Made by a program: the position numbers and the translations under genes. Positions 7,719-57,452 of a stretch of 64,000 nt of DNA are shown one piece after another. The DNA comes from a virus: positions 76,224 through 140,223 of the IMG/VR virus record IMGVR_UViG_3300044846_005100. One strand, written 5' to 3'. The notes under the pieces are model-generated. The model worked only from the letters and a program-made list of their open reading frames with translations. It did not search any database and was not told the origin of the DNA. How positions within the stretch are numbered: position 1 is the stretch's first letter; each line of letters begins with the position of its first letter.

Positions 7719-7737
7719 ATTTTTTATTTTTACTACT

Positions 7738-7757
7738 TGCACCCCGAAAGGTGCAAC
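7738..7757 (-). other. stable intergenic hairpin with UUCG loop
   Basis: Minus strand TTGCACCT-TTCG-GGGTGCAA; no U-tract follows. Confidence 0.55.
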
Positions 7758-7798
7758 GCTTTTGGCTTAAAGTCTATTTATAGTTGCCAAAACAACTT

Positions 7799-12737: not shown

Positions 12738-12808
12738 GCCTCTATGACCGAGTGGCTAGGTGTAGGTCTGCAAAATCTATTACGGAGGTTCGATCCCTTC
12801 TGGAGACT
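12738..12808 (+). tRNA. tRNA-Cys(GCA)
   Basis: Acceptor GCCTCTA/TGGAGAC, D arm ACC..GGT, anticodon arm TAGGT-CTGCAAA-ATCTA, T arm GGAGG-TTCGATC-CCTTC, U discriminator. Confidence 0.9.
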
Positions 12809-12835
12809 CTTTTTAAAACAAAAAACATTAAAATT

Positions 12836-13709: not shown

Positions 13710-13743
13710 ATTTATAAACGTTATATACAAAAACACAAAACAG

Positions 13744-14801: not shown

Positions 14802-14862
14802 AAATAAAAATTATTTTCGTATATTTGCAAAATATATTTTAAACACACAAAAAAAATTAATT

Positions 14863-16553: not shown

Positions 16554-17078
16554 ATGATAGAAACTACAGAAATGGTTTTAGAACCAAAGAAAATAAATTA
16601 TATTTTTGAAGGAGGATTTGATCTACAAAATATAAACGAAGCTCTTTCTTTTTTAAATGGAAATGATCTTCCTGTTAATTTGTTTATTAACACTCCTGGG
16701 GGGTATGTAAGTTATGTACATCCTTTTAGTAAAGCCATAGAAGAATATGGAGATATTGTCCTCTATCCTATCGAGGAATGTTCTAGTGCAGGATTCTTTT
16801 TATTATTAAATACTTCCGTACCTATTTGTCTATTAGACAGATCTATACGATGTTTGATTCATTTTCCTAGAATAGATTCTATTTTGGATATGAATAAAAA
16901 TCACATTTACGATAAAGTTGATTTTAAAAATAAAACAGAACAAAAAGGATTTTCAGAATTACTAAAAAGTCTTCCTTTACCAAATAAGCAAATGAAAAAA
17001 TTATTAAAAGGAGAAGATATAGTCTTATACTATAATGATTTATTAGAAATATTTAAAACGAGAATAATACATGAGTAA
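16554..17078 (+). CDS. ClpP-like serine protease (S14)
   Basis: INTPGGYV, CSSAG (nucleophile Ser) and IHFP (His). Confidence 0.7.
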   Translation: MIETTEMVLEPKKINYIFEGGFDLQNINEALSFLNGNDLPVNLFINTPGGYVSYVHPFSKAIEEYGDIVLYPIEECSSAGFFLLLNTSVPICLLDRSIRCLIHFPRIDSILDMNKNHIYDKVDFKNKTEQKGFSELLKSLPLPNKQMKKLLKGEDIVLYYNDLLEIFKTRIIHE

Positions 17079-17484
17079 TAATAATAATCATTTTGAAATT
17101 GTAAAAAACAAAAAATTTAAAGAAGTTATTTCAAATAAGGAATTTTTCACTGGTCAGACAGTCCTATTTATATGTTGTGAAGAATCTAAAACACCTACTC
17201 AACACACAATACAATTAGACACAAATTACCATGTATTAGATCCTATTGTAAAATACATAAAACATTCCTTCGATCCTAATGTTAGGGTTGAAGGACACTC
17301 TTTAGTGGCTATTAGAAAAATAAAGCCAGGAGATGAAATAAAGAGAAACTACTACGAAACAGAAGAGATTATAGTAAAAGAATTCACAGACAGAGAAACT
17401 GGAGAAAGAGTTAATACAAAAAATCTTTATTTATTCAATAATAAAAATACAGAAGATGGATTATTATTTGATGCAGAATTTTGA
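17071..17484 (+). CDS. SET-domain-like protein (divergent)
   Basis: YIKHSFDPNV and AIRKIKPGDEIKRNY match SET motifs NHSCxPN and GEELxxDY. Confidence 0.7.
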   Translation: MSNNNNHFEIVKNKKFKEVISNKEFFTGQTVLFICCEESKTPTQHTIQLDTNYHVLDPIVKYIKHSFDPNVRVEGHSLVAIRKIKPGDEIKRNYYETEEIIVKEFTDRETGERVNTKNLYLFNNKNTEDGLLFDAEF

Positions 17485-18010: not shown

Positions 18011-18035
18011 TTATTCACATACAAAACAATAAATT

Positions 18036-18251
18036 ATGTTCCCAGTAAACAAACCAAATCAATACAATCAACCTAAAGCTAAAGCAAATCCTTTAGAGTT
18101 AAAACACGGAAGTTACTTTTGGCTTTCAAGACTTCTTGGCACTTACTCCAAAGAAAGATTCAAAGAGATGCAAGATGCTTTAGAAAAAATTAAGCAAAAT
18201 GCTTCAGAACAGCAAGATGCTCCTGAAAAAGCATTTGAACAAATAGACTAG
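18036..18251 (+). CDS. hypothetical protein
   Basis: 71 aa. Confidence 0.65.
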   Translation: MFPVNKPNQYNQPKAKANPLELKHGSYFWLSRLLGTYSKERFKEMQDALEKIKQNASEQQDAPEKAFEQID

Positions 18252-23347: not shown

Positions 23348-23472
23348 CCCATAAATAAAGGATTTCAGAGTAAATTTTTTTATTATAAAAAAAAATAATT
23401 TACAAAAAAATAATTTTTTTTCAATTTTGTATCACAAAGCAATTATAATTCACACACACAAAAAAAAATAAT

Positions 23473-24631: not shown

Positions 24632-26209
24632 ATGAAATTATCACAAAGTAAATTCGGTATCATAAAAGCTCCTACGATTACAGGTGATCGTAACTGGGGT
24701 ATGAACTATACCAACCTAAACAACCTATATCAAGCAGGTTTGATCAAAACTGACGTTGATGCATTAGGTGGAATGGGTCAGTTGGCTTCTATGAAAACAT
24801 TGTTCGATGGAACATCTCCATTGTTGGAGCTTGCACAAGGTTCTGACACTATCACTGTTGAAGGTGACAAAGTAGAATGGGAATTCATGGTTTCAGGATA
24901 CAGACCAGCTCTTATCGTTGAAGACGTTGAACCAGGAAACTTAACTAAAGGTATTGCTCAAAGAGAATTCAAAATCAAACTTGATTTGGGTACTTATGTT
25001 GAGGGTGATACATTGGTATTCACTGACAGCAAAAAATTCAACATGCGTGTAAGTAAATCTCCAGTTAAAGAAGGTTCTTTCACAGTGTACACAGTTAAAT
25101 TGATGACTGACAGCCCTAATTTGTTCGTAGACAACAGTTTGTTTACACCAGGAACAAGGGTTATGAAATTGCACTCTACTTATTCTGAGGCTTCTGTAAA
25201 AGGTGGTTCAATGAGTGTTGATGCTATCGGTAAAATTAAATTCCGTTCTGGATTGACAAGATTTAGAAAACAATACCAAATGACAGGAGATGCTGCTCAA
25301 CGTAGATTGAATGGTAACTTGTCTGAGGCAGATTTGTTGATCTTGGCAGGTAGAAAAGCAGGAGAGAGCCAACAAGCTTTCCAAACAAGAATTGCTAATG
25401 CTTTGAACAAAAAGAATACAGGTAACATGTATATCACTTCAGTAGCAGAGGTTAAATTCAACAAAGAATTTGAAATGGAAAAAGAACTTCACTTGATGTA
25501 TCAAAGAAGTACTTCTACAGTAATTGACGAATCTACAGGATACTTTGTAAATCAAGGTCCAGGTCTTCAAGAGATTTTGGAAGATGGATACAGAGAGTAC
25601 TACAATACATTCTCTATCGGTCTTATCAAAGACTTCTTGCAAGATATTTTCTTCGGAAGAGTTGCTTACGATCAAAGAAATGTTGTAATGTGGACAGGAG
25701 AGATTGGATTGAGATTGTTTGATGAAGCTATCAACCAAATCACTCAAGGTTTCTTCAAAGACATGAAAGATTATTTCATCAAAACTGACGGAACTTCATT
25801 AGTACCAGGTGGACCAAGTGGATTGTCTTACACTGAAACTCCTTGGACTCAATACAAATTGAAATTTGGTGGTTCATTGACAGTTATGCACATGAAAGCT
25901 TACGATGACGTTACATTCAACACTATCTTAGATGAGAATGGTTATCCAGCAGAATCTTCAAGATTCACATTTGTAAACTACGGATTGGGAGATGGTTTTG
26001 GTAAAAATATTTCTTACTTGAAATCTAAGAGAGATGTTGCTTACGGATTTGAAGGTGGATTGTCTAGCCCTTACGGAAACAACCAAGGTTCAATGATGTC
26101 TCACTCAGGTGACTTCTGGACTGTACATAGAATGGAATACGCAGGTATCATGGTAAAAGATGTTACAAAATGCGGTGAGTTGATTCCAGCAGTATTAAGA
26201 GGAAAATAA
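24632..26209 (+). CDS. major capsid protein
   Basis: 525 aa; GPGLQEIL and TGEIG motifs, biased high-expression codons, position, followed by a terminator. Confidence 0.9.
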   Translation: MKLSQSKFGIIKAPTITGDRNWGMNYTNLNNLYQAGLIKTDVDALGGMGQLASMKTLFDGTSPLLELAQGSDTITVEGDKVEWEFMVSGYRPALIVEDVEPGNLTKGIAQREFKIKLDLGTYVEGDTLVFTDSKKFNMRVSKSPVKEGSFTVYTVKLMTDSPNLFVDNSLFTPGTRVMKLHSTYSEASVKGGSMSVDAIGKIKFRSGLTRFRKQYQMTGDAAQRRLNGNLSEADLLILAGRKAGESQQAFQTRIANALNKKNTGNMYITSVAEVKFNKEFEMEKELHLMYQRSTSTVIDESTGYFVNQGPGLQEILEDGYREYYNTFSIGLIKDFLQDIFFGRVAYDQRNVVMWTGEIGLRLFDEAINQITQGFFKDMKDYFIKTDGTSLVPGGPSGLSYTETPWTQYKLKFGGSLTVMHMKAYDDVTFNTILDENGYPAESSRFTFVNYGLGDGFGKNISYLKSKRDVAYGFEGGLSSPYGNNQGSMMSHSGDFWTVHRMEYAGIMVKDVTKCGELIPAVLRGK

Positions 26210-26224
26210 AACCTTATAGGCTTT

Positions 26225-26255
26225 AAGGGGTGAGCCGCCTAATCACCCCTTTTTT
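26225..26255 (+). terminator. intrinsic terminator after MCP
   Basis: AAGGGGTGA/TCACCCCTT stem plus T run. Confidence 0.85.
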
Positions 26256-26257
26256 AT

Positions 26258-26328
26258 AGCAGGAGGGAGGTATGGATCTCTCTGGTCTCATAAGCCAGTT
26301 AAACCAGTTCGAGTCTGAGTCGTTGCTA
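26258..26328 (+). tRNA. tRNA-Met(CAT), atypical or degenerate
   Basis: Anticodon arm CTGGT-CTCATAA-GCCAG, TTCGAGT T loop, AGCA/TGCT acceptor; short D arm and irregular T and acceptor stems. Confidence 0.7.
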
Positions 26329-26360
26329 CTATTTTTTAAACACACAAACAAAAAAAAACA

Positions 26361-27272
26361 ATGAGCACATTAACAAACAAAAAGGTAAAAATTTACCCAA
26401 ACATTAAAAAAAATAAGCATTGGCAAGTAAATATTGACCCATCTTATAGACAAGCGTCAGAATCTTATGCTTTTTTAGCAAACGCTAATACAATTAGACC
26501 CCAATTTGACGAAAGTTCTTATAGATACCATTTGGGTCCAATTAATGAAAGATACACTGATGAACAAATTAATACATTGGTTAGAAAACTAGCCTTAAAT
26601 GATGAGATTACTAATCAAAAAATCACATCAGCCGATCCTTCTAATAGAAGAGATCCATTCTTTACACACTCAAAATGTAAAGCAAAACTAACTAGAGATA
26701 TTCAAACTCTTGACCTAAACAAACCAACAGAAGAATTGGTTTATGGAATTATGTCTGCTGATCCAATGACAGTTATAGGAGAAACTTCTCTTTCAAAACA
26801 TCCAACAGCAGAATGGATTATAGAAGACGAAGTAGCAGATGCTACAATAAGAGAATCTAAGCGTGAGAAAACAAGTAAATTGCACGAAAGATATAACAAG
26901 CTTACTTTGTCACAAAAAAGAGATATGAGTACCGCATTAGGTATTAAATTAACAGGAGACGAGAAAGAAATAATTATTGAAGATTTATTGTACTCTAAGA
27001 TTACAGAAAACGAAAATAAAGAAACTCTTTCAGCAATTCAAGATTTATTCATTGAATTGTCCGACCCTAAAAATAAAGCTAAATTGGAAGTTACTATTAA
27101 CGTAGAAAAAATGTACCAATATGCTGTGTTAAGAAAAGAAAATATTAAAGTATTCTTTAACGGAGAACAACTTCAAACAGATACTATCCATATTATTGAT
27201 TTCTTACAAAAACCAGAAAATTCATCATTATATCTAAGCCTAGAAGAGGCTTTAAAAGCTAAAATGAAATAA
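26361..27272 (+). CDS. conserved crAss-like protein downstream of MCP
   Basis: 303 aa, synteny. Confidence 0.7.
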   Translation: MSTLTNKKVKIYPNIKKNKHWQVNIDPSYRQASESYAFLANANTIRPQFDESSYRYHLGPINERYTDEQINTLVRKLALNDEITNQKITSADPSNRRDPFFTHSKCKAKLTRDIQTLDLNKPTEELVYGIMSADPMTVIGETSLSKHPTAEWIIEDEVADATIRESKREKTSKLHERYNKLTLSQKRDMSTALGIKLTGDEKEIIIEDLLYSKITENENKETLSAIQDLFIELSDPKNKAKLEVTINVEKMYQYAVLRKENIKVFFNGEQLQTDTIHIIDFLQKPENSSLYLSLEEALKAKMK

Positions 27273-27976
27273 TGTTTTCAATAAAAGAAGCCCATTATAA
27301 ATTTAAACAACATGCTAACAAAGTAGACGGTTTAAGAAATGCTAATTTCCTAATACCTCAGATTGATGAGTATTTGTGGGAAGCATATATAATTTGGCTA
27401 GAAAACATTTGTGAACAGCTAGAAATAAATCAAAAGAGAAGAGATGATATTAGAGAGTTGGAAATAAAAGACTTTCCTCTCACTGTAACTAAGATCAACG
27501 ATGATTATTACACAGCAGATCTTCCTTTAGACTATTATAGATATTTAGAGTCTTACTCTGTATGCTTTACAGCTACTTGTCCAAAGAAAACAATTAAGAA
27601 TTTTTTCATACAAAAGGATGATATTTATACAAATGATCCTATGTTTAATTCTTCTTATACTTTTGAAAGAGTAAACATGGATATGTCTGGAAATAAATTA
27701 TATCTATACTATGAAGGATTTAATATTGATAAAGTATTTCTCACTTATATAAGAAAACCTTTACGTCCAGGGAACCCTCAAGACTTTATTAATGGAGGAG
27801 GAACATATAAGCTTCCTAATGGTACTTTAGCTGTACAGAGAGATATAGAAGTAAATTCTACTTTCCAATCAAACAAAATTATAGATATTGCAGTATTAAT
27901 CGCAATGAGAGACGTAGGTAATACTATAGATTTTGAATCACAATTAAATAAAATATTAAATATATCAAAAATTTAA
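27272..27976 (+). CDS. head-tail connector/ring protein
   Basis: EIDxxL-like, LPxDY and TYIRKP motifs; synteny. Confidence 0.7.
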   Translation: MFSIKEAHYKFKQHANKVDGLRNANFLIPQIDEYLWEAYIIWLENICEQLEINQKRRDDIRELEIKDFPLTVTKINDDYYTADLPLDYYRYLESYSVCFTATCPKKTIKNFFIQKDDIYTNDPMFNSSYTFERVNMDMSGNKLYLYYEGFNIDKVFLTYIRKPLRPGNPQDFINGGGTYKLPNGTLAVQRDIEVNSTFQSNKIIDIAVLIAMRDVGNTIDFESQLNKILNISKI

Positions 27977-27998
27977 CAAACTTTAAATAAAAATCAAA

Positions 27999-29174
27999 AT
28001 GAGATCAAGAATTCAAAAACAAATGTTCCTTCCTACTTCTGCAGTTGCAGGTAGTGCTACAGGATACGGTATTGTTGCAACTGGTACTGCATTTTACAAT
28101 GCTACTTCTAAACAATATCTTTTAAGACCAGGTCAAATCGGGTTTTACAACGCTGAAACTAATACAGCAGTAGATGCTACTACTATTGTAGGAGTAAAAT
28201 CAATTTATGTTGCTATTGGAGTTGACAAAAACGCTTCAAAAACCACTTCAGACGGAGTTAGATTAGCAGCAGGAGAAACTTTAACTTCATGTTCAATGGA
28301 CGATGCAAGTGTTAAAGCTCCTCAAGAAGGTGCTTCTAACAAAGCTAAGTTTAACTTCTCTTGTACAGATTGTGCTCAAAACTATTCAATCGGTATCAGA
28401 ATTAACGACCCTACATTGAACTTTTTCTACCCAGAAAATAGATACCATGTAGAAACTATTTCAGTTCAATCTGAAGATTGTCCTACATGTGATGGAGATT
28501 GCGACTACACACATGATTGTGAAGAAGTTGCTTTAAAATTCAAAGCTGCTATTGAGTCAAATGAGTTATTGTCAAAATATGTTGACAATGTAAGAACTTC
28601 TGCAGACCCAGTTACTCCAATTACCCCTGCTCCAGGATTTTCTTGTGCAATTGAAGTTACTTTCAAAGTAAACACTGCAGATTGTGTATGTTTCCCTCCA
28701 GCAGAAGCTATCATTGATAGATATACTATTGGATCTATCCAAGTTATCTTGAATTCAGCATGGGCTCCAAATTCTACAAGTGTTTCTGTAGATAATACAG
28801 GAATGCAATTGCCAGAAGGTCATGGTGCTAAATTGCAATGGGAAGAGTACAATGAAATGCCAGGTGGTACAGGTTTCGATGGTTTGAACAGTGAAGTTGA
28901 AACTACAGGAGCTCCTTACTACGCTCAATTGGGTGTATCAAGAACTAAAAACTTGTTAGTTGATTGTAATCAAACATATTGCCAATATGTATTGGGTTAT
29001 CATACAGTATCTCCAAATGAGAATGCAAACGGTATGAATTGGAATCCAAACTTTATCACAACTATCTTAGTTCCAGAAGCACATACTACTACTCAAACTG
29101 CAGTAGAAGCTACTTTGAATGCTTTTGTTACAACAGGACCTTGTGGTAAAACAATTGACCTTGAGTGTCTATAA
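27999..29174 (+). CDS. abundant structural protein (auxiliary capsid-like)
   Basis: 391 aa, Cys-rich, high-expression codon usage, followed by a strong terminator. Confidence 0.65.
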   Translation: MRSRIQKQMFLPTSAVAGSATGYGIVATGTAFYNATSKQYLLRPGQIGFYNAETNTAVDATTIVGVKSIYVAIGVDKNASKTTSDGVRLAAGETLTSCSMDDASVKAPQEGASNKAKFNFSCTDCAQNYSIGIRINDPTLNFFYPENRYHVETISVQSEDCPTCDGDCDYTHDCEEVALKFKAAIESNELLSKYVDNVRTSADPVTPITPAPGFSCAIEVTFKVNTADCVCFPPAEAIIDRYTIGSIQVILNSAWAPNSTSVSVDNTGMQLPEGHGAKLQWEEYNEMPGGTGFDGLNSEVETTGAPYYAQLGVSRTKNLLVDCNQTYCQYVLGYHTVSPNENANGMNWNPNFITTILVPEAHTTTQTAVEATLNAFVTTGPCGKTIDLECL

Positions 29175-29199
29175 AAATTAATATTATTAAGTAAAATTA

Positions 29200-29262
29200 A
29201 TTAATATATTGTTTTGTGTGTGGAGTAGGTAGCAGAGATTTCTTTGCTACCTATTTTTTTTT
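29200..29262 (+). ncRNA. candidate 3'-UTR-derived antisense sRNA with terminator
   Basis: Seed TAATATATTGTTTTGTGTGTGGA directly before the terminator AGTAGGTAGCAGAG/CTTTGCTACCTATT plus T run; complementary to several gene leaders. Confidence 0.45.
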
Positions 29263-29324
29263 ACATACTAAAAATTTTTTATAATATAAAAATTAATACT
29301 TATTTTTGTTGAAAATATAAATAC

Positions 29325-30140
29325 ATGAAAAAAATAAATATTATTTCAGAGGCAATTTATAAAGGCAAGCACAAACTTGTCAATCAAGGTGCCTTTATTA
29401 ATATGTCAGACTTAGTGGGAGACATATTCTCTTGTTTTAACATTCAATGTTGTAATGGACTACTTGATAGTAAATCAGATTTTTTTATAAGAAAATCCTC
29501 TTTAATTTACAGCAGAAAAAAACCAGGAGCTAACTGGCAATCGCTTAACAAATTAGTTTTGGATGTTTATAACTGTTTTACAGGTACAACATTATGTCCA
29601 GGTTCAAGAAGTGCACAATGGTGGATTACTACTGATGTAATCAGACCTGCAAAAACTGTCGAAACGATTAATTTTACCCCAATTATAGAAAAAGTATTGG
29701 AATGTTGTGGTATTATGAATAAATGCATTCCTTTAAATTTTAGAGCGTATGCAGATGGATGGATAACAGCAGGAATAACCAGCAAATCTGATTTCTTAGC
29801 ATTATTGAATGCTATGGGTAACGGATCCCCAGTTGTAAGTAATTTTGCAAAACAAGGAGATTATCTTGCAGCATCTATTTCAGGAGCAGAAATACTAGAC
29901 TTTAGATTTTTAGCTAGTCCTCGATTATTTTCAATTACTACTTTACCAGTAGAGACTACTTACATAGATATTTCTGGCCAAGGATTTAATACAGATAATT
30001 TAGACATTACAGCTGAAACATTATTAAATGGATTTTTGCCTAAAAGTTATTGGAATAGTTCAGCTCAACAAACTGGAGACCAACCTAGTGGAAGTGTTCA
30101 AGCAGATTTAACTACAAATGTAACAAGCGTTACTTTTTAA
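29325..30140 (+). CDS. Cys-rich virion accessory protein A1
   Basis: About 130-aa N-terminus shared with 30153..30746; distinct C-terminus. Confidence 0.7.
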   Translation: MKKINIISEAIYKGKHKLVNQGAFINMSDLVGDIFSCFNIQCCNGLLDSKSDFFIRKSSLIYSRKKPGANWQSLNKLVLDVYNCFTGTTLCPGSRSAQWWITTDVIRPAKTVETINFTPIIEKVLECCGIMNKCIPLNFRAYADGWITAGITSKSDFLALLNAMGNGSPVVSNFAKQGDYLAASISGAEILDFRFLASPRLFSITTLPVETTYIDISGQGFNTDNLDITAETLLNGFLPKSYWNSSAQQTGDQPSGSVQADLTTNVTSVTF

Positions 30141-30152
30141 TAAATAGACTAT

Positions 30153-30746
30153 ATGTACATAATATCAGAAGCAATTTTTAAAGGACAAAGTAAGCCTGCT
30201 AAATTAGCAGGTTATACTAGTTTTAGTAATATATTATGTGATATATTTAGTTGTTATAATTTAACATGTAATGCTACAACAAATACTTACATAAAAAAAG
30301 CGTATTTAATTAAATCTAATAAAAAACCTAAAAATAAATTTATTTCACTTACAAAACTTATCCTAGATATTTATAATTGTAAAAAAGGAACAAGTTTATG
30401 TATTCCAGAAGGAGCATATCAATGGTGGATAGATGGGGGTCAAATTAGACCAAAAGCTACAATAGAAACTTTAAATTTTAATAAGATAGTAGTAAATTTA
30501 TTATCTTGTTGTGGATTAGTGTCTTGTGGAGGATGTAGTTTGGCAAATGCTACGGTAGATTTAACAGATTTAGCAGGTAATCATATTGCATATATATTCC
30601 CTAATAATACTATTTGTCCTGAAGCAACAGTTGTGTTAAATGATTTAGCAGGAAATTTACTAGGATATATACTTCCGTCTAACACAGATGGAACTACAGT
30701 TCAAATAACAGATTTAGCAGGTAATACCCTAGGATGGGCATATTAA
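30153..30746 (+). CDS. Cys-rich virion accessory protein A2
   Basis: Shared N-terminus; three C-terminal DLAGNxxG/AY-type repeats. Confidence 0.7.
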   Translation: MYIISEAIFKGQSKPAKLAGYTSFSNILCDIFSCYNLTCNATTNTYIKKAYLIKSNKKPKNKFISLTKLILDIYNCKKGTSLCIPEGAYQWWIDGGQIRPKATIETLNFNKIVVNLLSCCGLVSCGGCSLANATVDLTDLAGNHIAYIFPNNTICPEATVVLNDLAGNLLGYILPSNTDGTTVQITDLAGNTLGWAY

Positions 30747-30774
30747 AAATTAAAATAATAAAATAAAAATATAA

Positions 30775-32073
30775 ATGGCAACAATAATAACAAGTACAGA
30801 TATAGGAGCAAACTTAGGGTTTACAGGAAGTCCTTTAAAACTTGCAGCTAGAGAACAATTAAGAGGTAATAATTATATAGTAGTTTATGGAAATAATAAT
30901 ACTACTCAACAAAATGGAATTGAATTATTTTCTAAATTAAATTTTGCAAAAATCTCTACTCCTAATGGGCTACCTTTATCTGACAAAAACAGAATGACGG
31001 TAATAGTTGCTCCTGGAGTTTATATTTTACCTGTCTCTATAGACTGGTTAGATATGGATACTCCTTATATAAATTTAGTATCTTTAACAGGTGAAGCAGA
31101 TGTATCTTTAATTTCTTTAAATAGTGCTACTGCTATAAAAGTTACTACTTCAGATATTAAAATAAAAGGATTTAATTTAACAGAACAAAGTAATAATATT
31201 ATTATAGAAGGTGCATATAGTAATAATTATTTTGAAAATATAATTGGAGGAGATTATAACTTTTCTAATGGAACCTTTAGGGGTCAAGTTGCAGGAAATT
31301 TTAAAAATTGTGTAGGAGGAAATCAATGTTTTGCAGATATAAATAATGAAGAAATGTTAATAAGTTCTACATTAGAAAATTGCACTGCTTCAGATTTTTC
31401 ATTTGGTCTTGAAATAGTGGAAAGTACTTTAATTAATTGTTTAGCTGGTGCTCAAAGTTTTGGATATAAGTCAATAATTAGTAGTTATTTAACTGATTGT
31501 ACTGCACGAGGAGAGTCTTTTGGATGTGCAAGTGGAATTTTTGGTTCTACATTAACAAATTGTACTGCTGGTGATTTTTCTTTTGGAAGAACTGATTTAC
31601 TTGGACAACCAACTATTATAGAAAAATCTCAATTAAATAATTGCAAAGCAGGGGTAAATTCTTTTTCAGTTGGGAATGTTGATGACAGTTCATTTATTAA
31701 TTGTGTAGGAGGAGATGAATCCTTTGGTGCAAATATTGCTAATAGCATTTATAAAAACTGTAAAGGTGGAAATAATTCTTTTGGTGCAGGACAACTACTA
31801 AGTTGGCCAGATTTGACTGCAGGAGGTAATTTTTATAATTGTGAAGCAGGAGATGGCAGTTTTGGTATAAACATTTCAAATGGTAATTATTATTACTGTA
31901 TAGCAGGAGGTGATAGTTTTACTGGAAGAACTCAAGGTGGTATGGGAGGTTATGCTGCTTATTGTAAAGGTATGAATCCAACAAGTTCAGGTTCAAGTAC
32001 AGCTATTTATTGTACAGATGCAACTAATAACCCTGTTAATTACGGATTAGGTTCAACAACAAATAATATATAA
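30775..32073 (+). CDS. beta-helix fibre/spike protein with NCxAGxxSFG repeats
   Basis: Many Cys-Gly-Phe repeats; TPNGLPLS..NR..IV.PG.Y domain shared with 38446..39513. Confidence 0.7.
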   Translation: MATIITSTDIGANLGFTGSPLKLAAREQLRGNNYIVVYGNNNTTQQNGIELFSKLNFAKISTPNGLPLSDKNRMTVIVAPGVYILPVSIDWLDMDTPYINLVSLTGEADVSLISLNSATAIKVTTSDIKIKGFNLTEQSNNIIIEGAYSNNYFENIIGGDYNFSNGTFRGQVAGNFKNCVGGNQCFADINNEEMLISSTLENCTASDFSFGLEIVESTLINCLAGAQSFGYKSIISSYLTDCTARGESFGCASGIFGSTLTNCTAGDFSFGRTDLLGQPTIIEKSQLNNCKAGVNSFSVGNVDDSSFINCVGGDESFGANIANSIYKNCKGGNNSFGAGQLLSWPDLTAGGNFYNCEAGDGSFGINISNGNYYYCIAGGDSFTGRTQGGMGGYAAYCKGMNPTSSGSSTAIYCTDATNNPVNYGLGSTTNNI

Positions 32074-51734: not shown

Positions 51735-54700
51735 TGGCTAAAAAGAAAGCTAACTTTAATAAACCAAATTCTTCAGGATGGTTGGATAACTATTCTGAAG
51801 AATTTTCTATTAGTAAACATCCTGATGGAGGAGGAGTATGGGAAGTTATAAAAGAAGAATTCAATACAGAATTGATAAATCCTGTAAAAAACTTTTTCTT
51901 TCCTGAAGAAAAGAAAAAGATAGTATATACGGACCCAAAAACATTACCAAAGTCTTTTAATTTACAAGATAATAGAAAAATAAATCCTATTACAAAAAAA
52001 GCTTTAAATCCTACTAGAGATTTAAAAAACTTTAAAGGAGTGAGTAAGGAAAATGTACAAGCTATTATTAAGATGGCAGATTATTTAGGTTATCCTAGAG
52101 ATCTAGCTTTGGCAGTTTCTTTACAAGAAAGTGGATTAGGTAAAACAGATGCTAATTTAGGACATAATCTTGATTATGACTTTACTCCTAAAATGGAAGG
52201 AGAAGTTTTTACTGATGCAGAAAAAGATGCAGGTGCATTTATATCAGGATTAAAAGATAAAGCAAATTATACAAAAACACTTTATAAGCAAAAGAAGATA
52301 CCTAAAGATGATTTAATTTATCAATTACAAGCTTATAATGGATTTGGTAAATTAACACCTAATACAGAGTTGAATTATTATCAAAATCCAAATCAAAAGT
52401 TTTATGGAGTAGATGTAAAAGGGAAGCCCTTATCTTTAAAAGATAATCCTTTATATGGGAAAACAATTATTAACTATAGAGATTCTATTATTAATCAAGA
52501 CCCTATATTAAAAAAATTCCTTAATCTTCCTAAGTATTATGAAGAGGGAGGAGAAGTTAATTCTTATTTACAAGAAGCCGAAACTTTCTTAAATGATTAC
52601 TATAACTCTCCAAGATACAAAGAAATGGTTTCTAATTCAACTATTGGAGATTTAGAAAAACCTGCTAATTATTTTACAGAAAATAGATTGAATAATTTAA
52701 AAACTAAAAAACCTTTAGTTTTTATGTCAAAAGATAAAGGAAATTTAGGTGGTACTTCAAATGCAGAAACAGGAGAAATAAAAATATATCCTAGAGATTA
52801 TGATAATATGTCTACTTATTTACATGAATTAGTTCATTCTTCTGATAGACCTTTAAACAAAAAAGATTTAAAAGAGAATATTAGAGTTATACCTAATAAG
52901 GATATAGAATTGATTAATAAATTAGTTTTTCCTGATTTAAAATCTAAAATGTCTCCAGAATCTTATAACAAATATAGTGATAAAGAAAAACAAGAAAAAG
53001 AAAATTATTATAAAAAGAAAATAAAAAACTATATTGCTACTCCTGAAGAAGTTAGAGCTCGTTTAATAGAAATAAGAAAAGCTGGTAAAGATAACAATAT
53101 TTTTGACCCTTTTACACAAGAAGTTGGTTATCCTGAATATAAAAAATTATTAGAGTTAGAATTTAATAGATTAAATAGCAATGATAAAGGTAATTACCCA
53201 TTATTAGATTTGTTTGAGGGATTTGATAATGATGGTATAATTCAAATGCTAAATGAAATCTCCCAAAACCAAGAAAACGATAGTTTACCTATGGCTAAAA
53301 ATGGGGGAGAAATATATAATGATATGAAAAAAAATATTAAAAAATACCCTGCAGGAGGTTATCTTAATTACCAAGAAGGATACAAAGGATTTGGTGTTGG
53401 TCCAGAACTTTATCAAGACAATAGTTACTTCAGATCTGTGATGCCTGACAATATTGAAAATATGGAGGAACAGATTAATCAACCTAGTGTATTTTCAGGA
53501 ATTAATAATATATTAGGTTCTGTAAATCAAGGTGTTAACAAGATAACAGGCTTGATGAGTAATATACCACAAAGTAGTAAATCTAACCCATTAAATCTAC
53601 CTAATCCCGAAGATAGTTTTATGCAAAATTATCAAAGTGCTCCTGCTAAAAAATTAGATCTTAATGGAGAATTAGATTTAACAGGGATAGAAGAACCTGA
53701 TATGTCTAAATTATGGGGAGAATATTTTAATAGTGGTCAATCTTCATCTACTCCTTTTCCTTCAAAATTATTAGAATCCGTGTCTTTTAAAAATGGGGGA
53801 AAAGTTAAAAAATATCAAAATGGAGGAGATATGGATATGTTGCCTGTAGGTTCTCCAGAATATATTCATAAAAGTAATGTATTTCATGAAAACTATAATC
53901 CTGTACCAAGAGTTCATTTTAGTGATGATACTACTCCTTATGATATGGGAGTTAATCTTAATGATTTAGTTAACATGAATGGAGGAAGGATAAACAAGTA
54001 TGCAGGAGGAGGGTTTGCGGAAATGTATGGTAATAGTTATGGAGGATCTAGTAATAGTCCTAGATTATTCAATGCTAATACAGGAAGAGCTACTCTACAA
54101 GATTTACAATCTGCAAGGGAAAACGACTTTTTGCATACAAAAATGAGAAATGATAGACAAGGTTATGAAGATGATAAAGTAGACTGGGGTTTTATGGATT
54201 GGGCTAAAGAACCTGTAGGTGCTTATTTAGGAATGATGAGCACTGTTCCAATTGTAGGAGATATTACAAAAGATATTGTTGGAGATTCATTCTTAACAAG
54301 AACTTCTGGTTATCAAGTTGGAAAAGGTATAGGTAAAACAACTTCAGGTTTACAAAAAGTTATTGGCGGAGTTGCTTTAACAGCTGCAGGAAGCCCACAA
54401 GGTATTTCAATGATTGGTCAAGGTGTTGGAGATGTAGGTTCAGGAGTAGGTGGTACTATTGGAAACTTAAATGCTAAGTCTGCTATGGGAGATTACGATA
54501 AACAAGGATATGTTTCAGGAAAAAGAATGGAAAAATCTTCTCAGGATTTTGGTAATATGATGTATACTGCTTCTGACTTGTTTGGTAATATATCAGGAGG
54601 GGTAAATCAAATGAAAGGATTAGGAGGAAAAAGTGGTATAGGTGGTCAACAAGGAGCAGGAGGATTTGACTTTTCACAGTTAGCAGGTATGATGAAAAAT

Positions 54701-54910
54701 GGAGGGTATTTAAATAACTATCAAGAAGGAGGAATGGTTTCAATGCCAGAAGATTTCGAGATAGCTAAATTCAAAAAAGGAGGCCTAACTCCTGCTAAAG
54801 CAGAAAAAATGTTACAAGATAAAAGCTTTACAACAGACAAACAAAGAAAATATTTTGGTTACATATCATCCCAGAAAAAAACTAGCGGTGGATGGCTAGA
54901 CGAAATTTAA
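51734..54910 (+). CDS. cargo/ejection protein with SLT-like and zincin domains
   Basis: ALAVSLQESGLG...AYNG (lytic transglycosylase-like), YLHELVH...PEEVRARL (HEXXH), many xxGG motifs. Confidence 0.7.
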   Translation: MAKKKANFNKPNSSGWLDNYSEEFSISKHPDGGGVWEVIKEEFNTELINPVKNFFFPEEKKKIVYTDPKTLPKSFNLQDNRKINPITKKALNPTRDLKNFKGVSKENVQAIIKMADYLGYPRDLALAVSLQESGLGKTDANLGHNLDYDFTPKMEGEVFTDAEKDAGAFISGLKDKANYTKTLYKQKKIPKDDLIYQLQAYNGFGKLTPNTELNYYQNPNQKFYGVDVKGKPLSLKDNPLYGKTIINYRDSIINQDPILKKFLNLPKYYEEGGEVNSYLQEAETFLNDYYNSPRYKEMVSNSTIGDLEKPANYFTENRLNNLKTKKPLVFMSKDKGNLGGTSNAETGEIKIYPRDYDNMSTYLHELVHSSDRPLNKKDLKENIRVIPNKDIELINKLVFPDLKSKMSPESYNKYSDKEKQEKENYYKKKIKNYIATPEEVRARLIEIRKAGKDNNIFDPFTQEVGYPEYKKLLELEFNRLNSNDKGNYPLLDLFEGFDNDGIIQMLNEISQNQENDSLPMAKNGGEIYNDMKKNIKKYPAGGYLNYQEGYKGFGVGPELYQDNSYFRSVMPDNIENMEEQINQPSVFSGINNILGSVNQGVNKITGLMSNIPQSSKSNPLNLPNPEDSFMQNYQSAPAKKLDLNGELDLTGIEEPDMSKLWGEYFNSGQSSSTPFPSKLLESVSFKNGGKVKKYQNGGDMDMLPVGSPEYIHKSNVFHENYNPVPRVHFSDDTTPYDMGVNLNDLVNMNGGRINKYAGGGFAEMYGNSYGGSSNSPRLFNANTGRATLQDLQSARENDFLHTKMRNDRQGYEDDKVDWGFMDWAKEPVGAYLGMMSTVPIVGDITKDIVGDSFLTRTSGYQVGKGIGKTTSGLQKVIGGVALTAAGSPQGISMIGQGVGDVGSGVGGTIGNLNAKSAMGDYDKQGYVSGKRMEKSSQDFGNMMYTASDLFGNISGGVNQMKGLGGKSGIGGQQGAGGFDFSQLAGMMKNGGYLNNYQEGGMVSMPEDFEIAKFKKGGLTPAKAEKMLQDKSFTTDKQRKYFGYISSQKKTSGGWLDEI

Positions 54911-54920
54911 AAAAATTAAT

Positions 54921-57452
54921 ATGAAAGAATTACTTTTAAAAATAGCAGGAGTTAAAACGGAAGAGGACTTTTACAAGAAGTTTCCTAATAAGGAAACATT
55001 TTTTAAATCTCATCCTGAAGCTAAGGAAATAATTGCTCAGTATCAGCAAGAAATGATGGCAAATTCCCAAGAAGAAATGCAAGGTAATCCTGAAGCATCT
55101 ATGGAAAAAATGGCACAAGGAGGTTTGATAAGAAGAGCAGACGGCTCTTACTCTCAAAGAGGGTTATGGGATAACATAAGAGCTAACAAGGGTTCAGGTA
55201 AAAAACCTACAAAAGAAATGTTAGAGCAAGCTAAGAAAATCCAAGCAGAAGAAATGATGTATGGAGGGATGATAGATGAATATGGAAATGGAGGTTACAC
55301 TGTAAGAAGAAGTAATGATAGAAAAGGTAAAACGCATGTCGTTATTGGCCCCGATGGTACCAAAAAATATTTTGGAGACCCTAAAATGGGAGAAAGAGGT
55401 AAATCTAAACATGGTAAAGATGCTTTTTATGCAAGACATAAAACTAACTTAAAAAATAATCCTTTCTTTAGAGCTTATGCTAGAGCAACTTGGGCAGATG
55501 GAGGAGTTCTTCCTGATATGCAACAATTAATGCTTGCTGGAGAAGATGTATATAACATGGGAGGTATGGTAGAATACCCTACTTATTTAGAGAGAGGAGG
55601 AATGTTATACGAAGAAGGAGGGATGTTAAACAGTATGACAGAAGCTATTCCTGTACAAACTGAGAAATTCCAAGGACAAGCAGAACAAGTTGCTTTACCT
55701 GATGGTACTATTAAATCAGTAGATGCTACAACTTCTCACGAAAATATGGCAGATAATACTGTAACAGATTTCTTACCAGGAGGCTCACATATTCAAAGTG
55801 CTCGTAATAAACTTAGTCCTGATCAGTATGCACAATTAATGCAAATGTTCAAACCTGAGAGTGCCGAACAAGATATTAAAAAACTTGCACAAGTATATCA
55901 AAGTAAATACGGTAAGAAGAATGGTAAAAAACTTTCTCCTGCTGATATTTCAGAATATGCTAAAAATAAATATCAAACAGAATCTACACCAAATGCATTT
56001 GATACTGATAAATTAAAAGAAGGAAATAAAAAAGCCTACTTGGAATTGAGCATGCAAATGAATGATTTGATAAAATCAGGAAAAGAAATTGCTGAAGGTA
56101 AAATGCCTGAACAAAATCCAATGATGGCTTGGGGTGGAAATGTAAGTAAATATGTTGATGGTACAGGATTTACAGGAGTGAATCCTATTGCAGACGAATA
56201 CGATGAATTAATGAAAGCAGGTTATATAAAATATGACCCTGCTATTGGAAAGATAAGAGCAAATTTACCAAAAAATATGCCTTATAAAGAAAAAATTCGT
56301 CTAGGACAGGCTATAGAACAAATGGGTTTACAAAATATTAGACAAAGCAAAACTCCTGGATATGATAATTTTTTTGGGGGAAACACTCCTTATGATTATG
56401 CACGTTTTTTTGTAGAAAATACTACAGGAAAACCTTATAATGATAATGTTACTGAAAAAGAGGTAGTAAAAGATTATTTTAATTTATTAAAAATTAATCC
56501 TTCAGAGGAAGATTTAAAAAATCCTGCTTCTTTATTTAAAATACCTGGATTTGACAAAGCTTATCAAGCCTATGTTAATGAAACTCCTGGTATGAGAGAA
56601 TCTTTTGGGATACCTACATTAGGAGATACTCCTAATATATTAGGAATACAACAATGGAAAGCAAGACCTTTAAAAACCCAGTTAGAACCTGCAGTAATAC
56701 CACCTTCACAACAAACTCCTGGAGAAAAAGTAGCTAGTCCACAATTAGGAGAAACAACTCCTGTGTCTCCAGCGGCCAGAATTCCTATGCAAAATAGATT
56801 TAACTATGGATTACTTGAGGGCCAACTAGGAAGAGGGTTATCAGCAAATCAAGCTATGTTAAATGCAAGTTTAGGTTTGAATCCATTATATGTAATGGAA
56901 ACTCCTGATACTTACATTAGAAGTAGAAAAAATGAAATTCCTGTAGGAAATATTTTATACAATATAGAAAAAGCCCAAAGAAATACTGCTAATGCTTTAG
57001 CTGATCAAACAGGAGATTGGAGTACATTGGCAGGTAATATTGCCAACTCAGGTGCCTCTGCTTATAACCAAATAGGAGACACTTTGAGTGCTTTAAACGA
57101 GAAAAATATTAACTTATATAATGAGACACAAGGTCTTCAACAAGGATTACTTGGAGAAAATGTAGATGTAAGAAATCAGAATCTAACAAATATGCAAAAT
57201 ATGTTGAACTTTAAAAGGAACTTATTTGGACAAAAAGCTGTTAAAGATGCAGAGCTTTATTCTAATTATGCTAAAAGCATGTCAGAAAATGCTCAAAAAG
57301 AACAAAATCAAAAAATGGAGTTGTTAAATATTATGGCATCTAAACCAGATATGTTTAGAGGAGAGCAAGGTCAAAGATTTGCAAATCAAATTATGGGTAA
57401 CTACGGTTCTTATAACAATCCATTTGCAGGAACTTTACTTAATTTTATATAA
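54921..57452 (+). CDS. cargo/ejection protein with xxGG motifs
   Basis: 843 aa; small basic modules separated by MAQGG, MYGG, YGNGG, WADGG and YEEGG. Confidence 0.7.
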   Translation: MKELLLKIAGVKTEEDFYKKFPNKETFFKSHPEAKEIIAQYQQEMMANSQEEMQGNPEASMEKMAQGGLIRRADGSYSQRGLWDNIRANKGSGKKPTKEMLEQAKKIQAEEMMYGGMIDEYGNGGYTVRRSNDRKGKTHVVIGPDGTKKYFGDPKMGERGKSKHGKDAFYARHKTNLKNNPFFRAYARATWADGGVLPDMQQLMLAGEDVYNMGGMVEYPTYLERGGMLYEEGGMLNSMTEAIPVQTEKFQGQAEQVALPDGTIKSVDATTSHENMADNTVTDFLPGGSHIQSARNKLSPDQYAQLMQMFKPESAEQDIKKLAQVYQSKYGKKNGKKLSPADISEYAKNKYQTESTPNAFDTDKLKEGNKKAYLELSMQMNDLIKSGKEIAEGKMPEQNPMMAWGGNVSKYVDGTGFTGVNPIADEYDELMKAGYIKYDPAIGKIRANLPKNMPYKEKIRLGQAIEQMGLQNIRQSKTPGYDNFFGGNTPYDYARFFVENTTGKPYNDNVTEKEVVKDYFNLLKINPSEEDLKNPASLFKIPGFDKAYQAYVNETPGMRESFGIPTLGDTPNILGIQQWKARPLKTQLEPAVIPPSQQTPGEKVASPQLGETTPVSPAARIPMQNRFNYGLLEGQLGRGLSANQAMLNASLGLNPLYVMETPDTYIRSRKNEIPVGNILYNIEKAQRNTANALADQTGDWSTLAGNIANSGASAYNQIGDTLSALNEKNINLYNETQGLQQGLLGENVDVRNQNLTNMQNMLNFKRNLFGQKAVKDAELYSNYAKSMSENAQKEQNQKMELLNIMASKPDMFRGEQGQRFANQIMGNYGSYNNPFAGTLLNFI

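Follow-up and report, generated by a model that had tools for sequence, protein, structure and literature searches.

A conserved GU-rich block directly upstream of an intrinsic terminator in a lake phage is complementary to CA-rich stretches at several gene starts of the same phage and to a site inside a SET-domain gene, and it changes in step with the latter site among related phages. The element is probably a terminator-linked base-pairing RNA that acts on phage mRNAs, a reading in which our confidence and our doubt are evenly balanced. A stable RNA species, its pairing in the cell and the sign of its effect are what we infer; the anatomy, conservation, strand bias, enrichment and covariation on which these steps are built can be read directly from the sequences.

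The window, i.e., the whole stretch of 64,000 nucleotides analysed here, comprises bases 76224-140223 of a complete, 140,223-bp IMG/VR phage record with a G+C content of ~30%. The genome of this phage is labelled G000 in the scans, and positions refer to the window unless stated otherwise. The host is probably a member of the Bacteroidota. The leaders of G000 consist of 54% A, a Shine-Dalgarno-like 4-mer occurs in only 11 of 226 leaders, and a TAnnTTTG box is located at most 100 nt upstream of 24 genes. The combination of A-rich leaders, scarce Shine-Dalgarno motifs and TAnnTTTG boxes corresponds to a Bacteroidota pattern, as in PMC7366714.

The genes for the large terminase (gene 18473) and the portal (gene 20834) lie near the element. 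A 377-aa gene (gene 23473), termed “scaffold” by position only, is found between the portal gene and the major capsid gene (24632-26209), and the latter is followed by genes for proteins of 303, 234 and 391 aa, in that order, to which no function was assigned. Pfam and PHROG searches likewise yielded no function for the genes 13744, 14863, 18036, 23473, 26361, 27999 and 29325 or for a 280-aa gene outside the window, and the term “GroES-like”, under which gene 14863 had been introduced in the original prediction, has no Pfam or PHROG support. A megablast search of 27000-31000 against GenBank phages gave no match. The large terminase ORF of one relative (L140, also G001; IMGVR_UViG_3300044716_000476) comprises 1119 aa versus 767 aa, and its tblastn match is split by an insertion of ~350 aa, perhaps an intein or a homing-endonuclease insertion.

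The GU-rich block, the putative seed, spans positions 29197-29229 (+), with the core ATTGTTTTGTGTGTGG at 29208-29223, and extends into the base of the terminator stem (GGAGTAGG). The adjoining intrinsic terminator, which had been correctly predicted, consists of a hairpin with a 16-pair stem at 29222-29257 and a U run reaching to 29262 (+). To call it the terminator “closing the capsid module” is loose, since the major capsid gene has a terminator of its own and the element follows the 391-aa gene. The 391-aa gene (27999-29174, +; stop codon 29172-29174) harbours the element in its 3′ UTR, and the element ends at the intrinsic terminator of this parent mRNA, which is the layout of a 3′UTR-derived sRNA. 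The 391-aa protein has no match in Pfam and a weak one to a PHROG without function. It contains many invariant cysteines (e.g., C122, C125, C161, C164, C168, C229, C231, C323, C328, C382 and C390), and no family was assigned to it.

The fold of 29175-29266 has a z score of -5.4 as a whole and leaves the GU-rich stretch mostly unpaired. An unpaired block directly 5′ of a strong hairpin is the usual layout of a seed, which supports this reading of the block. No comparable block occurs at the other terminators of the window, and no TAnnTTTG box was found upstream of the seed. For the element, Rfam including c4 (RF01695) gave no match at the gathering score over the window, and no meaningful match up to E = 5 over 26150-29400. 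The element was also considered as a minus-strand promoter or leader; this interpretation was rejected, as no ORF follows on the minus strand, where the hairpin itself takes the upstream position.

Searches with the 391-aa protein yielded eighteen related contigs, and alignments added further ones. In all related contigs found, the block TTAATATAT..(A/G)TTGTTTTGTGTG(TG)G(GA)GTAGG is located directly 5′ of the terminator, and in every relative the element follows the 391-aa gene. Four seed variants can be distinguished: S1 in the window clade and its close relatives, S2 in L076, S3 with CTGTTG...GGGTAGG and S4 with CTATTG...GGGTAGG. The block is identical in all S1-type relatives; in clades whose flanking protein is 60-64% identical, it is nearly unchanged (..ATTGTTTTGTGTGGG(A)GTAGG). 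The sequence between stop codon and block varies among the relatives, and so does the upper terminator stem, which differs on both arms (TAGC../..GCTA, TGGT../..GCCG, AGGT../..CCTC). The seed is thus both conserved and unpaired, as is typical of the accessible seed of a 3′UTR-derived sRNA. A scan of IMG/VR with the seed pattern detected the element in this phage group only; other matches were unrelated and mostly coding. Alignment-based scans of viral and metagenome contigs with the 391-aa protein and the large terminase returned no clade beyond ~57-73% identity. All clades retain the stretch TTAATATAT (29197-29207, +), which adjoins the seed core on its 5′ side, including those in which the 18036 leader has lost its matching part; this stretch may serve as a processing site, as a phage-type promoter element or as an extra seed.

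When the entire sense transcriptome of G000 was scanned for ungapped pairing, three outliers emerged, namely a site within the SET-domain gene (score 24.0), the start region of gene 18036 (22.6) and the leader of the 280-aa gene (22.2), with the next match at 17.3. The pairing of 29202-29224 with 18014-18036 (+), the leader and start of the 71-aa gene 18036-18251, had been described before and is exactly as proposed: 22 of 23 positions are paired (20 Watson-Crick, 2 G:U, one mismatch), the match ends on the A of the ATG, and the duplex energy amounts to -23.6 kcal/mol, making this region the best leader partner within the window. The 280-aa gene is located outside the window on the minus strand (54542-55384 of G000), and its leader contains ACACACAAAACAATAT, an exact complement of 16 nt of the seed (16/16).

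The four shorter CA matches named in the original prediction are also present at their positions. These are the leaders of the scaffold gene (23451-23463, +; an 11-nt match, with CACACACAAAA at 23453), gene 14863 (14843-14852, +; ACACACAAAA), gene 13744 (13733-13742, +; ACACAAAACA) and gene 26361 (26340-26351, +; ACACACAAACAA), the last being the 303-aa gene, which opens the operon ending at the element. In G000, all four matches remain at background level (16.0 for the scaffold leader; the other three below the top 15 of the scan), and thus only 18036 stands out among the five leaders proposed as targets. Nor is the set of partners limited to head-assembly factors, as had been assumed, since the SET-domain gene and the minus-strand 280-aa gene are among them.

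How exceptional these scores are depends on the background chosen. Among 200 shuffled seeds, none reached the third-best value and two reached the best. Natural intergenic 40-mers give P = 0.024 for the third-best (three-target) score, and RNAduplex energies compared with natural intergenic 29-mers yield P = 0.04-0.13 (top 4-13%), a comparison which discriminates weakly, because tRNAs, hairpins and repeated promoters score high. The intergenic sequences that exceed the seed are these repeat families themselves (tRNAs, promoter cassettes). The excess of pairing over background is clear with shuffled seeds and weaker against natural intergenic sequence. With the terminator left intact, the cofold gains are -19.3 kcal/mol for 18036, -15.7 for the scaffold leader, -12.2 for 14863, -12.0 for the SET site, -11.4 for 13744 and -8.1 for 26361. 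The drop of the SET gain to -12.0 with an intact hairpin indicates that the advantage of this site depends on opening the lower stem.

The relatives assign a larger part to the scaffold leader. In all 12 relative loci examined, each extending over 10-15 kb around the element, it ranks first or second among the leaders by pairing, and the leader of the 303-aa gene, too, is among the best or nearly best local partners of the local seed. In the complete genome G006, whose 391-aa protein is ~62% identical, the scaffold leader ranks first among the leaders (-26.5 kcal/mol vs a genome mean of -9.2, sd 3.3), and the six best pairings include the leaders of the scaffold, 18036, 14863 and 303-aa homologues. 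The top four leaders in G007 are those of the 14863, 13744, scaffold and 280-aa homologues. In both genomes, a sliding-window scan showed that numerous coding windows attain energies like those of the leaders.

The complementary tag ACA[CT]ACAAA is present in 8 copies on both strands of the 140-kb genome. Five of these are located in leaders in sense orientation and none antisense of leaders, as opposed to a mean of 0.48 sense-leader copies in composition-preserving shuffled leaders (P = 0.0005); the proposed enrichment of the tag in leaders over background is thereby confirmed. The five leader tags are positioned 3-31 nt from the ATG, all in one orientation, and the tag is in sense even on the minus-strand 280-aa gene, which implies that its role depends on the direction of transcription. 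In orthologous leaders of the relatives the tag is kept, often as a fuller ACACACAAAACAAT, as in the homologues of 18036 and 14863. The 18036 homologues retain CACACACAAAACAAT, and the 14863 leader has the full ACACACAAAACAAT in clade-B relatives and is weak in G000. The CA box of the 26361 leader is kept in all clades and pairs weakly, and that of the 13744 leader is variable among relatives and weak. The distance between the 18036 tag and the ATG is ~23 nt greater in clade-B relatives, so that simple occlusion of the start codon cannot serve as a general mechanism. Since G006, moreover, lacks the tag in the 280-aa leader, the target set appears to be fluid.

A/C-rich, unstructured leader tags might also act as enhancers of Shine-Dalgarno-less initiation, with the GU block serving terminator function or the stability of the mRNA 3′ end, in which case the complementarity between them would be without function. 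The base composition of the genome lends itself to such an explanation: leaders are rich in A and poor in Shine-Dalgarno-like motifs, the window is replete with AT-rich inverted matches (301 pairs of at least 18 nt), and in k-mer counts of seed-complementary leaders (P = 0.08-0.13) T-rich sequences match more leaders than the seed does. These counts are uninformative, however, because T runs pair with A-rich leaders and so outscore the seed. We give this explanation only a slim chance, as the seed is an exact complement of 15-16 nt to the tag consensus, the block is conserved far past its flanks, other terminators of the window are devoid of such a block, and both covariation and synonymous constraint are seen at a coding site, which cannot be a leader enhancer.

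This coding site (17194-17215, +; CCTACTCAACACACAATACAAT) covers codons 42-49 of the SET-domain gene 17071-17484, the domain being assigned by Pfam (PF00856, 25.2 bits). It tops the transcriptome scan with 20 of 22 positions complementary to the seed and the stem base. S1 seeds (..GGAGTAGG, ATTG..) occur together with CCTACTC..ACAAT at the SET site, S4 seeds (..GGGTAGG, ATTG..) with CCTACCC..ACAAT and S3 seeds (..GGGTAGG, GTTG..) with CCTACCC..ACAAC. This pattern has no exception among the 12 loci containing both elements, nor among the total of 15 when metagenome loci are included. It involves two separate exchanges of A:U for G:C, both of which are synonymous in the SET gene (ACT/ACC, TTA/CTA). 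Accordingly, the SET site pairs best with its cognate seed in each of 10 distinct combinations, with a tie between S3 and S4 seeds on S4-type sites; cognate duplexes range from -24 to -30 kcal/mol, and non-cognate ones are mostly 2-5 kcal/mol weaker. The scaffold leader favours its cognate seed in 9 of 10 distinct combinations (compare the G006 leader TACCCACATAAAACAATA with the S4 complement TACCCACACAAAACAATA), and at the 26361 leader no cognate advantage exists outside S1. Compensatory change in related phages, as expected for a 3′UTR-derived sRNA, is hence found at a coding site that was not part of the original prediction and, in weaker form, at the scaffold leader.

The nucleotides of the SET site are also constrained beyond the protein sequence. 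Among invariant residues, the mean pairwise codon difference is 0.08 inside the site vs 0.39 outside (56 columns), and four of its six codons never vary, vs 18% of the codons elsewhere in the gene. Other clades (L135/L153 and L130) encode the same TIQ motif with other codons (ACT ATT CAA; ATT CAG) and have a degenerate seed-complementary site, which demonstrates that the protein does not dictate the nucleotides at this position. Synonymous codons differ between clades by 28-41%. The covariation comprises only two independent events in a small and shallow tree, and by our own estimate there is perhaps a ~10-15% chance that each arose by accident. In L120, an S1 genome, the SET site is disrupted by an A-to-T change. 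The idea of a 12-kb invertible segment with the SET site and the element as its boundaries was rejected, since the order is the same in the 12 loci (15 with metagenome loci) and a crossover would break the SET gene.

Concerted change of this kind would also be expected if the tag were an asymmetric binding site for a phage or host protein, the alternative named in the original prediction. The site could act in RNA or in DNA, in the latter case in the manner of the mycobacteriophage L5 stoperators. Such sites would be placed in sense at gene starts and in the SET gene and inverted once at 29.2 kb, and since all copies share one consensus, they would shift together with the specificity of the protein. 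The tag has an orientation bias, oriented 13-bp stoperators exist in Cluster A mycobacteriophages (mentioned in PMC3203893), and the copy in the 14863 leader occupies an operator-like position just downstream of a host-type, i.e., Bacteroidota-type, -7 box (TATATTTG). Furthermore, as judged by reading the alignments, wobble-compatible changes are not clearly in excess where targets deviate from perfect complementarity. The inverted copy, however, has a fixed and conserved junction with the terminator hairpin and has no minus-strand promoter nearby, the sequence upstream on that strand being the hairpin instead of an AT-rich promoter region. In the S3 clade, where the seed has acquired a G, the SET site has switched to C at the opposing position and the scaffold leader still has T, a combination which departs from a shared DNA motif and fits G:C plus G:U pairing in RNA better than a single protein motif. 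No protein emerged as a candidate for binding, and on balance we regard a protein site as rather unlikely.

Pairing might also take place at the RNA level without repression in trans. The 3′ end could pair in cis with the CA leader that begins the operon to which it belongs (26361-29174), or a CA-bearing RNA could weaken the terminator and thereby cause read-through into gene 29325 and beyond. The icaR mRNA of Staphylococcus aureus is closed by pairing between its 3′ end and its leader, for control of stability or translation. The operon that ends at the element indeed starts with a CA box in every clade, and the complementarity to the SET site, including one covarying position, reaches the 5′ base of the terminator stem, where it would matter for hairpin formation. 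Yet the own-operon leader is the weakest partner (see the cofold gains above) and lacks a cognate advantage outside S1, and the strongest partners are 11-12 kb away or on the other strand. Antitermination in trans would presumably require pairing within the short time before the hairpin forms. Taken together, these variants appear improbable.

The favoured interpretation is therefore a base-pairing RNA whose 3′ end is set by the terminator following the 391-aa gene and which exposes the block 29197-29229 as a single-stranded seed. The RNA species would be either the mRNA 3′ UTR itself or a derived fragment of roughly 55-70 nt, and the seed would pair in trans with CA-rich stretches of the phage's own mRNAs. 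In G000 the main partners would be the 18036 start region, the SET coding site and the minus-strand 280-aa leader, and across the phage group the scaffold leader would be the conserved partner, such that several partners may constrain the seed. The outcome is likely lower translation or faster decay of the partner mRNAs once the late operon is strongly transcribed. From the trans-acting sRNA as originally proposed, this model retains a conserved, single-stranded, terminator-adjacent element, a leader-enriched and strand-specific complement and covariation; it abandons occlusion of the start codon as the general mode of action.

The arrangement resembles trans-acting sRNAs that are derived from 3′ UTRs and share the terminator of the parent mRNA, such as MalH from malG (PMC8081044) and the UTR-derived candidates of Bacteroides thetaiotaomicron (PMC7366714). 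As in these cases, the element is placed between a stop codon and an intrinsic terminator and has a conserved single-stranded seed 5′ of the hairpin, and its complementarity reaches several mRNAs, mostly at their start regions. It differs in that it resides in a large, apparently lytic phage with a host devoid of Shine-Dalgarno initiation and has genes of the phage itself as predicted partners. GibS of B. thetaiotaomicron uses a long single-stranded, AU-rich seed to repress Shine-Dalgarno-less mRNAs at their start regions without Hfq or ProQ (PMC7366714), and the extended single-stranded seed described here is predicted to be directed against the same type of region. GibS, however, is transcribed from its own promoter as a separate intergenic gene and carries its seed at the 5′ end, and there is no sequence similarity between the two.

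A striking formal parallel is provided by the SAS of Cluster K mycobacteriophages (Pope et al. 2011, PMC3203893). These conserved, asymmetric tags are found a few bases before gene starts in one orientation and are tied to particular gene families across subclusters, and a single opposite-strand copy that is not at a gene start is present in four Cluster K phages; their function is still unknown (PMC3203893). The tags reported here share the position, the uniform orientation and the single opposite-strand copy. Their sequence, ACACACAAAACAAT in leaders without Shine-Dalgarno motifs, departs from the SAS consensus GGGATAGGAGCCC with its Shine-Dalgarno core; the host phylum differs as well, and no terminator-associated antisense RNA has been proposed for SAS. 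The c4 antisense RNA of phages P1 and P7 sets a precedent for a phage RNA that pairs with repeated sites in phage mRNA and blocks translation (review PMC12197685). Unlike the element, c4 is a processed, structured RNA of temperate enterobacterial phages and acts on one operon.

For the predicted pairing at codons 42-49 of the SET gene, well inside the coding region, MicC and ompD offer a comparison. In work attributed to Pfeiffer et al. 2009, MicC is said to pair with ompD inside the coding sequence, dependent on Hfq and RNase E in enterobacteria. When pairing occurs deep in a coding region, blocking of the start codon cannot apply, and induced decay is the usual outcome.

Most known phage sRNAs act on host genes or on a single phage operon. 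Those described so far come mainly from temperate phages of Proteobacteria (PMC12197685). A conserved terminator-linked seed with covarying phage targets in a large phage of the Bacteroidota type would be a new variation on known RNA regulation. If the model holds true, a seed has been kept over tens of percent of protein divergence in such phages, with several of their own mRNAs as partners and a coding site that changes in step, and the timing or dosage of phage genes would be set post-transcriptionally in hosts without Shine-Dalgarno initiation or Hfq. The seed and its targets would also constitute a compact, testable set for RNA control in Flavobacteria-like systems. A broader proposal, possible in our view and at the same time doubtful, is that one terminator-linked RNA forms a post-transcriptional hub in this group of lake phages of Shine-Dalgarno-less, Hfq-less Bacteroidota, co-evolving with the SET site and the scaffold leader, and that it exemplifies a wider habit among Bacteroidota phages, by which a short leader tag marks sets of genes for control by a single antisense RNA.

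Several conserved features adjoin the CA boxes. Upstream of the scaffold gene, a conserved block (TTTTTTTTCAATTTTG..) is located at 23400-23445 (+) and at the homologous positions in L114, L126 and others. Most relatives possess a second seed-complementary box (GTACAAAACAATTA) before the scaffold CA box, which is degenerate (CACAAAGCAATTA) in the window phage. Between the capsid terminator and the 303-aa gene, positions 26257-26336 (+) contain a conserved structured element with a tRNA-like anticodon stem-loop (CTCATAA loop, CAT) and a T-loop-like stretch (GTTCGAGTC), which ends with GCTACTA and a T run just before the CA box. Neither ARAGORN nor Rfam called this element; it is kept in most relatives, and in the S3 clade it has a different tRNA-like 3′ part. 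Two further RNA genes were annotated in the window, a tRNA-Cys (GCA) at 12738-12809 (+) in the late-strand region and a Pistol self-cleaving ribozyme at 7731-7797 (-) in the minus-strand early region (Rfam RF02679, 65.1 bits vs a gathering score of 34.5).
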